Shown in pieces: positions 31,908 through 39,860 of a stretch of 64,000 nucleotides of DNA. A program made the position numbers and the translations under genes. The notes beneath the pieces were generated by a model that made no database searches, was not told the origin of the DNA, and was given only the letters and a program-made list of their open reading frames with translations. How positions within the stretch are numbered: the stretch's first letter is position 1; every line of letters begins with the position of its first letter. Source of the DNA: Rhizophagus irregularis (lineage: Eukaryota); the NCBI RefSeq assembly GCF_026210795.1, contig NC_089433.1:2294001-2358000 (forward strand), given 5' to 3'.

Positions 31908-32107
31908 CACATTGTGCGGTTAAACGATATTGAGTATGATATATACCTCCGATGTTGTATAGTATAGTTGACGAAAATCTATACAGTATAATTTTTTATT
32001 TACTGTATACAGTATAGCTTTTATCTATACAGTATAGTTTTTTTACATTATACTATACAACATCGGAGGTATATATCATACTCAATAACTATATTATCCA
32101 CATTGTG
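31908..32107. mobile_element. 200-bp foldback MITE with bipartite terminal inverted repeats
   Basis: Perfect 39-bp inverted repeat 31928-31966 / 32049-32087, plus symmetrically placed outer CACATTGTG (31908-31916) and CACAATGTG (reverse complement of 32099-32107); internal TATACAGTATA repeats. Confidence 0.8.
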
Positions 32108-32317: not shown

Positions 32318-34903
32318 ATGACCGAAACCACAACTTATTTTAATACGCCTTCCGAAGAATGGAACTTCCTTAGTTACTACAAGCACCGCCGTAATGAAAA
32401 CAACTTCACCTTTTCTTTCAGAAAGGAATCATTTTTACTCAAGAAAAATCTTGAATCCCGTCAAAAAATATCAAAGGCCAAACAGTTGTTAGAAGCATTT
32501 AAGGTTATTGTATTGCAAAGCGGTGCGGTATGAGGTTTTTGCAAAGTTGCTTGCGACTTCCACGACTATGAGGACGTTCTACGCGCCGTTCCTCTAATAT
32601 TCTACGTGAATGTGGTGGTGTGTGGGAACCTCAGAAGTCATTTATGACTCTCACAGCTATGAGGACGTTCTACGCGCCGTTCCTCTAATATTCTACGTGA
32701 ATGCTGTGGTCCGAACCTAGATATTCTTTCATCGGCACCATACAACATCGTCATTACAAATTTTTAATGTTTCCCTTTTCTTTTTTCTAGAATCATCGAC
32801 AGCATAACGAGGATGTCAACATTTTCTGGAACGAAATCGAGCTTATGTATTTAGAGTATGAGAAAAATTTGCGAACAGTAAGCATATTTTTTGCTGAAAA
32901 ACTCTTAGAGTTTTTACTAAATAGCTTTCTTGTGCAGAAACGATGTCATGTAAATATTAGTAGTAAGACGCAAGATATGATGGAGAACATGGCTGAAGAA
33001 ACTGTGAAAGCACATTTAGCTACAACAAAGGTGATTCTTTAAAAAACGTAAAACAGACTTCAAGTTCATAATACATCCAATGTTATTGACCTTGCATTTC
33101 TGTAGGATTCGAATGATGAAATTAATGATTTTTTCCAGAGTTCTTCCGAGCAACAACTTCCCACCTTGTTTTCTGATCGAGATCATTGTTCCAAATGTCA
33201 CATGGAGGTAAATGCATTAAATTTGTCATTGCAATGGATAACAACATTTACCTTTTATTTTGATTCTTTAGATTAATATTTCCGGACCAATGAGATTTTG
33301 TCCTTATTGCGGAAGTAAAGTTGCTTCGTCCGATGATATTGAGTTTGAGGAGTTTGAGAGTGACAGTGATGAACCAGTTGAAGTATGTTAATAACAGAAT
33401 TCTTATTATTTTATTTCACATATCTCACAGTTTAATTATGTTATTTAGTCGGATCATGAAACAGATGAAATTAAGGACGATGAAAATCCTCCTAAAATAG
33501 ACAAATTGGCTTTTCGCGAATCGCACCATGCTATTCCAGATAATGCGAAGATGCATTTGAAGTCAGGAAAAATAGTTGAAGATGTTCTTTTCGATTTCGC
33601 CAAAGATATGGAGCATGAACAGTCAGTTTTCTCAAAATTTGATCACTCTTTTTTTTATCTTATTATTCGTGATCCTGACATATGTTATCAGCCATGCCCA
33701 TTCCTACATTATAAATTATGACGACGAAAATGTCAAGGCATTGTTCACCCAAACGGAGTGGAACGAATTAACTGAGGATCGAATTAGGATTCCAGGTGTT
33801 CCGCGTGAAATTGGGGAGGAGCTGGTGAGATACGGGAAGAAAACATTAAGTGAGCTTCGTAATTCCGTGTTGACATCGTATTTACAAGATGGGACCATCT
33901 ATGATATCAACAAGCACTACAATCAGGAGTGGATACAAATGGCAGTGCGAACACTAGTAAATCTATATGAAAATATAGATGCCCCCTTAATTAGAAACCA
34001 ATACGAAAATTGGTTTACTGTCGCTTTTTTTGGGACGTGCATCGACCTTTGTATGAGGGATATTCAATTATGCACGGATATTAAGAGGTTTAACCATTTT
34101 TTCCACTGGTGTATATAATATATTCACTTTTAACATAATTTTATTTATCACTACTTGTAGGACCGACGCACCATCACTAGCTAGCGCCAACAGGAAAAAC
34201 CGCGGTCGGTCAGGAAACACAAAAACCAGAAAATTGACAGGACGCAAAATCGATGGGATAGTATACATAGTTGACAGAAATCTTGAAGTGGGTGTTATCG
34301 AAGCGGCGAGATCATTTTTGGGTGTTTCGGATCGAAAGTATCTTCTTGAAACGTTCAAAATGCCGAAAACGCTTCGAGATATGTATGCTGATCTTGTGAG
34401 AACAGCAAATTATGACGAACAAAAAGCTAATAATCTTCAGGTTTTCGGTATTTTGCATCTCGGTCTATGGATTCAGTTCACGAGATTATATCGTGCCGGA
34501 GGATCGATTTGTATTTTTAGGAAGGATGTTGTATCTCACCATGTAGATAGCAAATTCTCTGAAGATGGAATAAAATCTTTTCTAAAACTTATGGCAGCAG
34601 TATATCAACATAAGGTAAGACTTGTACTGTACATACGGTTTCATTCATCTTACTGTTTTCCTAATCATTTCACAGCTTATTATAAGGGATAACTTACGTA
34701 TACTGAATATCCGGAATGCAAATATTGAACCAGGAGATGATGATGATTTGCTAAATGATATATTAAATGTTGGAAATTATTCTTCTACGTCACAATCATC
34801 GATTGAACGTTTCGCCGATTCTTGGCCCACCCCAAGAAAGAAAAAGAGACCAAAGAGTGAAAATTCGAAGAAAAAGAGCGCAGTAAAAAAGAGAAGGTTG
34901 TAG
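32318..34903 (+). CDS. Zinc-ribbon plus PD-(D/E)XK (restriction-endonuclease-fold)-like protein, 9 exons
   Basis: Exons 32318-32503, 32791-32877, 32938-33030, 33106-33207, 33272-33383, 33449-33621, 33692-34087, 34161-34614 and 34676-34903 splice in frame with GT-AG; CSKC...FCPYCG zinc ribbon; GRKIDGIVY...LEVGVIEAA...DRKYLLETFKMPKTLRDM nuclease-like core; basic NLS-like tail PRKKKRPK...KKRRL. Confidence 0.8.
32504..32790 (+). ncRNA. Candidate intronic structured RNA (two tandem modules) in intron 1 of the nuclease-like gene
   Basis: 47-nt exact direct repeat 32566-32612 / 32657-32703 flanked by covarying stems and hairpins; G-U pairs indicate that the sense strand folds. Confidence 0.6.
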
Positions 34904-35481
34904 ATAAGCTTCTAACCTTCCTGCTAACTTCTTTTGCTTTATTTGCTTTCTATACCTACTTTCTATACCTTTGATTGGTGAGTCAATTTCTTTTCTCAAT
35001 TGCTCTTGCAAGTGACTAATTTTACTCTTGATTTGAGTTGTGATTCAGAATTTTGATCTATTGGTTTATTCGATAAAAATGTTTGCTGGGTCTTGCTATA
35101 AGAGACGGACACTTAATATAAGTTGCAAGGAACCTTTTTTAATATAGTGCGCTAAAATGAAAATGCAGTTCCCGATTTTTTTATTGTTCGCCTTGTATTT
35201 TTTAACGTGTATTTTACGATGTGGAGATGTAACATGATTGGAAAATAAAACAGGCTTTTATTGTATAGACGTCGGTATTTTTATCGGTGTTCCGAAACAA
35301 AACGCGCATGTGATTTTTTTTTATCTTAATAAAAACACAATTTGTAACGCCGGCAAGAAAAATTTTTATAATAAAATTTATTACACATATATATAAACTG
35401 ATAGTACTGCATGCATTGTGTGAAGAATCTCTCACGTATAGTTGTTTCCGAAATTTTAAAAATTTGTATAATAGTGCGAAA

Positions 35482-35895
35482 TTGCAAATATCTCAGGATC
35501 TAGTAATCAGATTTCGATGCTCTTACTATTCATTTGATTCGTCTCATCAAGACAAATCTAATGATATGTATATCATTTTTATAGCATCGATATTGATGGA
35601 GTAAAATTACTATAAACATTTAATGAATGTTGGTGTTGAAGCACGATCTAGTAATTGGATTTAAATGAATTTACCACCATTCGATTCATCATGATGAGAT
35701 AATTCTAATGGCGGTAAGATCATCTTTCTAATATTGAAATTGATGGAGCTATTATGCTATAAATATTTAAAAGTTATTGGTATCAGAGCGCGATCTAGTG
35801 ATTGGATTTAAATGATCATACTACCATTAGAATCGCCTTATCGAGATGAATCAAATGGTAGTAAGATCATCCAAAACGGATCACTGGATGCTGAG
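35482..35895. repeat. Three diverged ~147-148-bp units of a palindromic GATCTAGT repeat family
   Basis: GATCTAGT at 35497, 35645 and 35792; third unit is an imperfect palindrome; related copies at ~40383-40487 and ~41801-41921. Confidence 0.7.
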
Positions 35896-36529: not shown

Positions 36530-36750
36530 TATTTTTATATTAAATTATATAAAAATATGAATCAGTAATATCACAACTCACTTTTTTTATATAGAATCAA
36601 TATAAAAAAGTGAATCGCAATACTGCAACTCACTTTTTTTATATAAAATTAATATAAAATATTAAATTTCAATATCACAACTTACTTTTTTATATAGAAT
36701 TATTAATAAAAAAAGTAAAACCCAATACCCTAACTCACTTTTTTTTATAT
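36530..36750. repeat. Degenerate tandem array of ~51-bp self-complementary units
   Basis: About four repeats of CAATATCACAACTCACTTTTTTTATATAGAATCAATATAAAAAAGTGA-like sequence. Confidence 0.7.
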
Positions 36751-37494
36751 TTAGTTATTACTAGATCTATAAAATCTATAAATAATTTAGTTCAGAACCA
36801 AGTCCTGGGACTAGATCTAAGATTAATCCTAACAGAACCTGATTTATAGGTTCATTCAATAGGACTGATAGGTTTTGAGACCAGAATCAAATCAGGACTG
36901 ACTTAACCATTTCTATTTCTAAGATAAGTAGATAATATATTTTTTTTATTATATTATTTGAGATTAAAATTAGGCTAGAACAGCTAGATGAAATGGGTTT
37001 GTTCTTGGTATTTCAGGTTTAATTCTAATTTAATTTTAATACCAGAAATTTTAAATAGTAGAAAAATAGTCCAGCCTGATTTTAAGCATAAATTCAATAT
37101 AAGGGTTCTATATATTAAAATAGAATCAAGTAGGTCTAGAACTGAATGATAGAATTAATAAGTAGTTATTTTAAGCATCAGATACTTGCTAAACCTATTT
37201 TTTCAAAATTTTAGTTTAGTTAAAATTTAATTTAAAATTCTTTTATAATAAAATTAATTGCTTAAACTGTTTTTATATTTTTTTAAAACTATTATAATTT
37301 AGAAAAGTTTCAGATTTACCAATTTTTTCATTAAAAATAGATTTTGAGTTTCAGATTTTTGAATTTTATTGTTAAATGAGTTTCAGGCAGCAATACTATC
37401 AAAGAATTCTTGACTATATTATTTGTTATTTATCTTCTTTAAGTTCATAGTCAAATTATTTAAACCTGCTTATACCCTTTGCAGATGTCCTGCT

Positions 37495-38161
37495 GCTTAC
37501 TCTATATTTTTAGTAAAATTGTAAAAAATATCTTCAACTATTTTTTCTGACTTCAAATGCATTTTTACATTATCTAAAATAATATAGTATGCTCATAAAA
37601 AACTAATTTGTCTATTTTAGAAGGACTTTTATCATCCTTATTTTCATCTGCTGCTTTATAATTTAACTAAATAATATAATTAAACTGTGAAATATCAAAT
37701 ATATAAAATAAAAAAATAAGAATTCTATTATTAACATATTTAAACTGGTTTATCACTGTTATTTTCAAACTTCTCAAACTCAATAATATTAGATGAAGTA
37801 ATTTTACTTCCGCAATAAGGATAAAATTTTTATTAGTTTAAAGATATTAATTTAAAAAATCAAAAAAAATAAATGTTATTATCTATTGCAATAATAAATT
37901 TAATATATTTATTTTCATAATATTTGAAATAATGATTTTAATTAAAAAACAGATTGGGTAGCTGTTGTTCAGAAGAACTCTAAAAAAAATTATTAATTTC
38001 ATTATTTAAATCCTATAAAAATGCAAGGTTAATAATATTAAATATATTATAAACTTGAAACCTATTTTAAATATTCTTTCACAGTTTCTTTAACTATATT
38101 CTCTATCATATCTTATATTATACAATTTATATTGACATGATATTGCTTCTACATAAAAAAG
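37495..38161 (-). pseudogene. Inverted, transition-eroded relic of exons 3-6 (with introns) of the 32318-34903 gene family
   Basis: Reverse complement aligns by eye to ~32925-33615; e.g. TTTACTTCCGCAATAAGGA is shared exactly and TCTTCAACTATTTTT.CTGACTTCAAATGCAT nearly so. Confidence 0.88.
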
Positions 38162-39860
38162 TAAAAGGCAAAAAAAAAGTTGGCAACTATAGAAGATATT
38201 CATTTTAGTAAATCTAAATCAAATTCTATTTATTAGTTTAAATGCTTTTTGCATTATATTTTTGTCTTGCTTTTTTTCCTTTTGCAAGTTCAATAGAATG
38301 TTAAATTTTAGCTAAATTGTAAAAGAATTATCTTTTATTTACTGAAATCAAATACAATAAATTTATCCTTACAGAAGTAACTATTAATAATCATATAGAT
38401 ATATCCTTTACATCATCAGTATATTATTTAATAACTTTAACCAAATCTTATGTATTATTGCTAGCATTAAACTGCACTAGAAACATTAAATTTTCATAAA
38501 TGATCATTGATATATAATGGTACTTTTGAGTAGAATAGCAAGAAGAAATATTCTGATATTGCCTATATAAAAATAGTATAATTCAATTTTAAATAAATTC
38601 AAAAGTAATATATATATCCTCAAAAATGATTACAACTAATGTAAAAATGATTTTACACTAGAAATTTATTCTAATCTAATATTCTTATAATAGGGTTTAC
38701 TTGATATTATCTAACAAATATCTATTTTAGTTTATCAAAATGGTAAATACAAGATTTACCAGTAGATTGATTTTACTTGTACTATTTCTTTTACTAACTA
38801 TCATACTGAAAGACCATGTTATTGCTAGATGTTTAATATTTTGGATAATTTATGCTTTATGCTCTCATCTATATTTATAAGATAACTAAATCATTTTTTA
38901 TTTGTACTAATTTATTATTCTTTTTAATTAATGAATCTTCTAAATTCCTTTTTATCAATCTAAACTAATATTTTCAGTAGTTAATTTCCATTTTTCAGTT
39001 TCAATTTATATTTGAGAAAATCCATTTCTAATAACTTCTTCCATATTAAAAAAGCATTCTGCTCCAACTCTTTTACTCTTAATTGAAGTACTTGCATCTC
39101 TTCTTTCATTTTGAATTTAAGAACTAGTATTTTTTCTAATTTTATAAAAAATTCATTTTTAATATCTATAAGAAAAATATTTTTATAGGTAATTTAAAGT
39201 TTAAAATCTTTTATAATTGCTTTATCTTGTTTTCAAACTTAAGATTATTTATCTCTAAATATAACTGTATTATTTTCTCTTCAAGTTAATATATACAATT
39301 AGAAAGTTTTTCATTTTTTTTTTTAGATTTATTAAAGTCATCATCCTGTATGCATTTATTTTCTTTTTTTATTGGATTTAAAGAATTCTACATATGCTTA
39401 TTTTTTCTATTTAAGACATCATAACTATTTGCAAATTGACTTTTCCAATATATAGCAACTTCATGGTCTTTTTTTTATGTAAGAAAGCTCTTTTTTAAAT
39501 TCTATTTAGCTTAAAAAATATTAATTTACTAAAGAATCTTCAAGTTTATTACCATTATTTAAATTTTTAAAAGTATAAATTTGGATATTTTATTGATATT
39601 TTTTTTTATTTTGAAGAAAAATTCAGCCAGATTTTTAAATTAAATTATTTTTTTTTTTGGCAAATCTAATACCTATTGATATTTATTGAAAAAAAAAAAT
39701 CTCTAATATATACTGAAAAATACTAATATACATTCATACTTATTAATATATACTGAAAGAAAATATTGATTCATATTAAAGAATACTAATATGTATTGAA
39801 AAACACTAATTTGTACCAAAAGATATTGATATAATTATATTGAATTATCAGAAATAATAA

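Follow-up and report, generated by a model that had tools for sequence, protein, structure and literature searches.

A family of structured intron RNAs, apparently undescribed, in header-nuclease genes of Mucoromycota

The host gene and its long first intron

The window, the whole stretch of 64,000 nucleotides of Rhizophagus irregularis DNA analysed here, carries a gene (Table 1) whose spliced frame is open over 609 amino acids. Exons 1 and 2 together encode an N-terminal header of about 115 residues, and the C-terminal part is likely, as judged from structure models, to be a PD-(D/E)XK-type domain. The main 3' exon matches Rhizophagus irregularis proteins at 100% identity; among its 61 relatives, all the named ones belong to Glomeromycotina. 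The C-terminal part, modelled at pLDDT 69, gave VIA-align Z scores of 8.3 to a mitoribosomal protein, 7.3 to DrdV, 6.7 to BpuSI and 4.7 to EcoRI, where the values of 6.7–7.3, to type IIG/IIL restriction enzymes, correspond to an rmsd of 4.1–4.5 across 131–146 residues; Foldseek returned nothing at E<0.001 for this model. D260, E276, K295 and K298 (P0001 numbering) are nearly invariant among the relatives, and in the catalytic motif the D and E are conserved while the third position is an alanine, with lysines further on. The header matches neither a Pfam family nor a known RNA-binding fold, its structure model is poor (pLDDT <50 across most of residues 1–147) and the ESM Atlas gave two Mucoromycota clusters only, under 0.8.

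In other genes the header is joined to unrelated C-terminal parts, and the nuclease domain of the host gene is also found behind other headers. Proteins of the latter kind have different 5' peptides, and those of P0005, P0010, P0011 and P0043 may represent hammerhead ribozymes lying 5' of these genes. Shuffled headers joined to REase domains characterise the Crinkler/RHS-type (CR) proteins (Zhang et al. 2016, as summarised in the available text of PMC5289972), which resemble our family in that, in Rhizophagus and its kin, a helical header at the N-terminus is recombined with various C-termini of nuclease fold. However, a ubiquitin-like CRN header is absent here, and intronic RNA is not mentioned for CR proteins in that text. 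One header-nuclease gene (P0063, P0064, P0068, P0075, P0076 and P0098) is 90–96% identical across Dentiscutata, Gigaspora, Racocetra, Ambispora and Acaulospora, five arbuscular mycorrhizal genera, which suggests either horizontal spread or cross-contamination of assemblies.

A decayed partial copy of the host gene, from intron 2 to exon 6 and ~80% alike, lies on the minus strand at 37490–38228; it differs mostly by C>T and G>A changes, contains many stops and is without intron 1. About 230 nt 5' of the start codon there is a MITE-like 160-nt inverted repeat (31928–32087, with 50-nt arms that are 90% complementary), which gave weak miRNA-model matches only. Directly 3' of the stop codon, positions 35055–35144 show 90% likeness to 3' peptides from the relatives P0007 and P0095, which indicates that the copies conserve this part as well. 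Short diverged direct-repeat arrays with 148-nt and 52-nt spacing follow 3' of the gene at 35494–35821 and 36532–36744.

Table 1. Features of the host gene and of the two modules in intron 1 (positions in the window)
Feature	Position	Strand	Description
Exon 1	32318–32503	+	first half of the helical N-terminal header, common to many genes with differing C-terminal domains
Intron 1	32504–32790	+	287 nt, GT..AG, phase 0
Leader and start of module 1 hairpin P0	32528–32553	+	1 difference from a diverged single-copy paralogue; 4/4 DNA runs
Module 1	32544–32618	+	P0 32544–59; P1 32560–66/32612–18 (one G.G)
Module 1 interior, P2 side			J1/2 32567–69; P2 32570–76/32587–94; L2 32577–86
Module 1 interior, P3 side			J2/3 32595–98; P3 32599–602/32608–11; L3 32603–07
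47-nt core	32566–32612	+	exact copy at 32657–32703; same 7-mer in L2 and in P3/L3
Module 2	32636–32709	+	P0 32636–49; P1 32651–57/32703–09
Module 2 interior, P2 side			J1/2 32658–60; P2 32661–67/32678–85; L2 32668–77
Module 2 interior, P3 side			J2/3 32686–89; P3 32690–93/32699–702; L3 32694–98
Exon 2	32791–32877	+	second half of the header
Exons 7–9	33692–34903	+	predicted restriction-endonuclease-like (PD-(D/E)XK-type) domain

An earlier note on this DNA, made from the letters alone, had drawn attention to two structured modules in intron 1, and its coordinates and sequences all check. The intron is indeed unusually long and GC-rich, with a GC content of ~0.43 compared to 60–75 nt and GC 0.20–0.34 for the seven others. 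The core that the note described as identical in the two modules is an exact repeat, although not of 45 nt but slightly longer (Table 1). A 19-mer taken from it is observed twice where 0.01 occurrences are expected by chance. In all four DNA runs the core unitig has about twice the depth of its flanks, giving about two exact copies per genome, and in the same runs one diverged single-copy paralogue retains the same intron layout. If intron 1 is retained, an in-frame stop is met at 32531–32533.

Folded alone, each module adopts as its minimum-energy structure the proposed three-way junction with a small hairpin next to it, at −16.7 and −19.6 kcal/mol, respectively. The strands joining the three helices are 3, 4 and 0 nt long. 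In the ensemble of the full intron module 2 is predicted to form the junction at ~0.6, and module 1 favours an alternative fold, with P1 at 0.0 and P2 at 0.15. In the closing stem of module 1 six of the seven pairs can form, the seventh being a G.G mismatch. An additional 12-bp helix proposed to enclose module 1 (32531–42 with 32622–33) is complementary at 12/12 positions with four G-U pairs, but its probability in the full-intron ensemble is ~0.01 and complementarity is its sole support. The intron as a whole folds with z = −2.33, and the folding energy of the sense strand is −77.9 versus −64.6 for the antisense strand. At 32594 and 32685 the pentamer of the junction is shaped like a branch site, similar to the one in intron 8; in distant modules the corresponding CUUAY is not a standard branch-site pentamer.

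Homologous modules and covariation of their stems

The letters of foreign modules can be recovered from annotated proteins in which the intron was mispredicted as exons: back-translation yields the codon positions that the genetic code fixes. Third codon positions stay unseen in this approach, gene models may be spliced inside a module, and several of the carrier proteins are near-identical and hence not independent. The core peptide was found between both header exons in Acaulospora morrowiae, Funneliformis geosporum and Racocetra fulgida, and as a tandem pair in Racocetra persica. The F. geosporum protein P0069 matches module 1 at 50 of 51 code-fixed letters, and R. fulgida P0098 differs from module 2 by five forced changes among 43 fixed letters. 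Four of these five form two compensatory pairs, T32638-A32647 becoming C-G and G32656-C32704 becoming A-T, and the fifth sits in a loop. The chance that five random changes cover two whole pairs is ~9e-4, with restoration of pairing not yet demanded.

A search with a header profile against 1.84 billion representatives revealed many further carriers, in Paraglomus, Ambispora, Acaulospora, Funneliformis, Cetraspora, Entrophospora and R. clarus and, among Endogonales, in Endogone and Jimgerdemannia. Examples of the named proteins are CAG8505417.1, CAG8616063.1, CAI2191719.1, RUS21965.1, RUS34302.1 and GES79199.1. We scanned 26 carriers for the P1-UAY anchor and selected, by their position, 21 placements that lie between the two exons of the header; four were dropped, being without a second anchor at the expected distance, and the remaining 17 together with the two window modules make a set of 19 from Glomeromycotina and Endogone. 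All share the constant geometry P1-UAY-P2-CUWAY-P3-P1' with nearly constant spacing, 26–28 nt from UAY to CUWAY and then 17–22 nt to the closing strand. The P2 and P3 pairs that were scored played no part in placing the anchors. A first count with registers set by hand (P2 pairs 2–4, P3 pairs 1–4) gave 42/51 paired positions; with the final registers, set by a fixed rule (P2 pairs 2–5, P3 pairs 1–3), 48 of 51 code-fixed pairs do pair, 45 of them Watson-Crick, and the 14 distant modules taken alone give 26/29. A-U, U-A and G-C alternate at the same P2 and P3 positions from module to module. When the partners are slid against each other, Watson-Crick pairs drop to 6–29 out of 45–59. Among 35 anchor-only matches from prokaryotes and viruses, 99 of 245 positions pair and none of the matches reaches at least six of seven pairs.

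This compensatory change in other species, both in P0098 and in the wider set, bears out the proposal of the earlier note that the fold of the RNA is under selection, along with the particular fold it drew, a small hairpin, a closing stem and a three-way junction, and leaves little doubt, as far as sequence comparison can tell, that selection keeps it. The companion claim of an invariant core does not extend across the family: only copies from one gene, or from closely related members, have the same core, and in distant members stems and loops are replaced, the junction letters and P1 being all that is kept. Distant members also have an extra 5' hairpin and a longer P0 with a possible small pseudoknot. 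The element does occupy the first intron of related genes, but it tracks the header rather than the nuclease domain. The anchor pair is found 5' of exon 2 in 14/45 header-bearing proteins, most header gene models splicing the intron out, versus 4/694 coding segments. The modules represent a structure that is conserved in pre-mRNAs of a single protein family, one of the two marks of an autoregulatory intronic RNA element; the other would be a change in splicing when the encoded protein binds.

The modules are usually tandem, near-identical within a gene and different between genes, with tandem near-identical modules in P0075, P0153, P0155 and P0163. In addition, L2 repeats the P3/L3 sequence of its own module: the likeness is greater within than across modules (14 modules, permutation p = 3e-4) and ranks in the top four in 11 of the 14, with three outside. 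Since L2 repeats P3/L3 and the modules are tandem, a typical gene carries four look-alike loops. The likeness could alternatively reflect an alternative pairing with the 3' strand of P3 or an old duplication of a hairpin. Kissing between L2 and L3 looked promising in two Paraglomus modules and failed across 14 (permutation p = 0.98), and the loop 7-mer has no complementary site within the window.

Other searches reached little beyond this set. A covariance model built from three sequences finds the two window modules only. The metagenome scan left one locus among 290 candidates, L001, which is a decayed header gene whose intron folds no better than its shuffles (z = +1.74) and has lost P3; a decayed module of the distant type is recognisable in this header pseudogene at L001:325–420 of the metagenome contig. 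Viral scans found the exact core nowhere and the header in 0/127; the gapped P2 pattern had 95 chance matches, 0/95 of which continue as the core, and the anchor pattern 28 matches, all without stems. Of two GTDB scans, one gave 0 matches and the other, with the anchor pattern, 7 without stems.

Known RNA classes and alternative explanations

The core had been judged by eye to match none of the consensus sequences of the TPP riboswitch and of the hammerhead, HDV, twister, pistol, hatchet and hairpin ribozymes, and Rfam 15 agrees, with no ribozyme or riboswitch match on the window up to E = 10, models of the twister, twister sister, pistol, hatchet and hairpin ribozymes included. The best hit was SNORD33 (E 1.3, 18 bits versus a cut-off of 44), and on L001 nothing came near threshold over the element. 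The sense strand is without box C or D and its sole H-like hexamer lies 3' of both modules, so that with the score of SNORD33 an intronic snoRNA was rejected. The purine riboswitch aptamer is a three-way junction of a size similar to the module. Its J2/3 strand resembles the window loop by eye, but here these letters stand in loops and are lost in distant members; as there is neither support for L2-L3 kissing nor an Rfam match, both a purine and a TPP riboswitch were set aside. HDV-like ribozymes form a nested double pseudoknot with P1.1, an L3 consensus and a catalytic C in J4/2. No HDV or CPEB3 model of Rfam matches, covariation backs a different, nested fold and the L3 letters vary freely. 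Hammerhead ribozymes have the core strands CUGANGA and GAAA around three stems. Neither strand occurs on the sense strand of the intron, whose junction has other joining lengths, and the core is well conserved among hammerheads (PMC3088659, in its available text). An HDV-like fold using the linker as P1 of module 2, a degraded hammerhead and a permuted purine or preQ1 aptamer were also tried by eye, and the letters they need are lost in distant members. With fungal HDV variants (PMC5640933) and hammerheads (PMC3088659), as far as the accessible parts of these papers go, the modules share a length of ~60–75 nt, constant junction letters, an often tandem arrangement and mobile-looking host genes. 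They differ in their predicted topology, a plain three-way junction whose joining strands count 3, 4 and 0 letters, with no nested pseudoknot and no hammerhead core.

RNA runs give a hint of the fate of the intron. Introns 3 and 5 are spliced, and intron 1 is seen only unspliced, in X15 and X16, or without exon cover, in X18. Contigs of X15 and X16 bridge exon 1 to intron 1 or intron 1 to exon 2 unspliced and traverse module 1 or 2 intact, with later introns of the gene spliced; these contigs are few, at depth 2–5, and may be DNA or ordinary pre-mRNA. The joint of exons 1 and 2 appears in none of four shallow runs, which is no proof of retention. X18 shows intron sequence 32583–32798 at a depth of ~25; this is one run, its contig passes the acceptor by 8 nt and it may be DNA. 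A 91-nt skip in X16 was set aside as the expected assembler product of the 47-nt repeat.

That the modules make up a new class of functional RNA in polymorphic nuclease genes of Mucoromycota, acting either as a self-cleaving ribozyme or as a stable intron RNA that partners the encoded protein, is conceivable though doubtful. In the latter case the gene-specific, fourfold-repeated loops would give each nuclease its cognate RNA, as a eukaryotic RNA antitoxin or guide scaffold. Cleavage on its own, by a ribozyme of undescribed class, we regard as unlikely: co-transcriptional cutting within intron 1 would allow only fast-spliced transcripts to yield nuclease mRNA. Small ribozymes are generally built, like the modules, of helices joined by short constant strands at fixed spacing (PMC6765202, in the part available), here with covarying helices; X18 shows intron sequence with no exon cover; and where the same nuclease family has other 5' peptides, the genetic code allows a hammerhead core in them, the first strand in 4/7 proteins tested and both strands, 32 nt apart, in P0010. 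However, no Rfam ribozyme model matches, neither hammerhead core nor GAAA stands on the sense strand, cleavage must be incomplete since X15 and X16 contigs are intact through module 1 or 2, and catalysis leaves unexplained why the look-alike loops differ from gene to gene. Type III toxin-antitoxin systems use a tandem-repeat RNA as antitoxin. An excised intron that similarly binds the encoded nuclease, or scaffolds it with variable loops selecting targets, would fit a nuclease gene that contains structured repeats in tandem, loops that are gene-specific yet repeated four times, the intron-only contigs of X18 and the near-identity of the P0063 group in distant genera, suggestive of mobile, selfish genes. 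We nevertheless consider it improbable, as the RNA tracks the header and not the nuclease domain, the X18 contig has the limits given above and the window offers the loop 7-mer no complementary site.

In fungi, TPP riboswitches control the splicing of introns. A tandem small-molecule riboswitch acting in this way on intron 1 agrees with the intronic position, the three-way junction with constant joining strands and the predicted alternative fold of module 1; it is very improbable given no Rfam riboswitch match, no metabolic gene, a tie to one protein header and only seven constant unpaired letters. Least credible is the idea that there is no RNA-level function at all and that the cores are cassette micro-exons, or a MITE or chance duplication. 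Each 45-nt core is in frame, flanked by AG and GT, and is an exon in several gene models. Since members read in frames 0, 1 and 2, the core is not a micro-exon; moreover, changes are non-synonymous and yet base pairs are kept. Nor is it a high-copy insertion, because core depth is about twice single-copy and the single-copy paralogue has the same layout. The objection that the element might be a plain MITE also fails, with two core matches in the window, about two exact copies per genome and modules without terminal inverted repeats. These explanations are largely refuted.

A possible splicing gate and its meaning

What, then, might the modules do? We tentatively favour the view that the two of them form a repeated protein-binding site which gates splicing, most plausibly for the gene's own header, and so limits the predicted nuclease. 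The RNA follows the header; its geometry, P1 and the letters of the junction are kept, while its loops are repeated and specific to each gene. A multivalent site for a protein that changes with the gene appears to fit this best, and the header is the obvious candidate for the binder. The unspliced intron 1 contigs of X15 and X16 are a hint in the same direction, and the branch-site form of the junction pentamer agrees with it. A protein-binding splicing element would fit the anatomy at least as well as a riboswitch or a ribozyme. If the modules fold in vivo as predicted, the header protein would bind the four look-alike loops, two per module in two modules, on its own pre-mRNA. Binding would stabilise the fold and slow the removal of intron 1; the retained message would terminate after 71 codons, giving less of what we presume to be an active and costly enzyme. 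Header and intron would then constitute a portable control cassette, shuffled onto different nuclease domains. Several points weigh against this splicing gate: for module 1 in the full intron the energy model prefers another fold to the junction, the header is without a Pfam family or known RNA-binding fold and is poorly modelled, the bridging RNA contigs are few and shallow, distant modules carry CUUAY, the foreign letters all come from back-translated gene models, and the loop likeness has the alternative origins given above.

Comparable arrangements are known. Plant 45ABC in RBP45 genes (PMC13485355) and intron motifs of fungal ribosomal-protein genes (PMC5640933; PMC8216456) share with our modules, according to the accessible text of these papers, a covarying pre-mRNA structure, its restriction to one protein family and an unproductive message as the alternative. 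The host here is instead a polymorphic nuclease family in Mucoromycota, with tandem three-way junctions and gene-specific repeated loops, and feedback would be a putative feature. The main text of the fungal RNA screens PMC5640933 and PMC8216456, in the part available, does not include these fungi, and their supplements could list them. We found no description of this RNA in the literature outside subscription journals. The structured RNAs in first introns of Mucoromycota header-nuclease genes form a genuine family, which appears to be undescribed.

Eukaryotic families of structured cis-acting RNA with comparably clear covariation are rare, and in the literature covered we found no account of one from arbuscular mycorrhizal fungi. 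The nuclease genes that carry the present RNA form a large family with a mobile look, in fungi that are the chief root partners of land plants, and the RNA offers a direct handle on how such nuclease genes avoid harming their host. The way in which it came to light also suggests that the false exons of fungal gene models are a source from which unrecognised RNA motifs can be retrieved. Should the module cleave, it would add one more class of ribozyme; should it bind the header, it would be a portable feedback cassette; and should the RNA partner the nuclease, it would represent a new kind of eukaryotic RNA-protein system.
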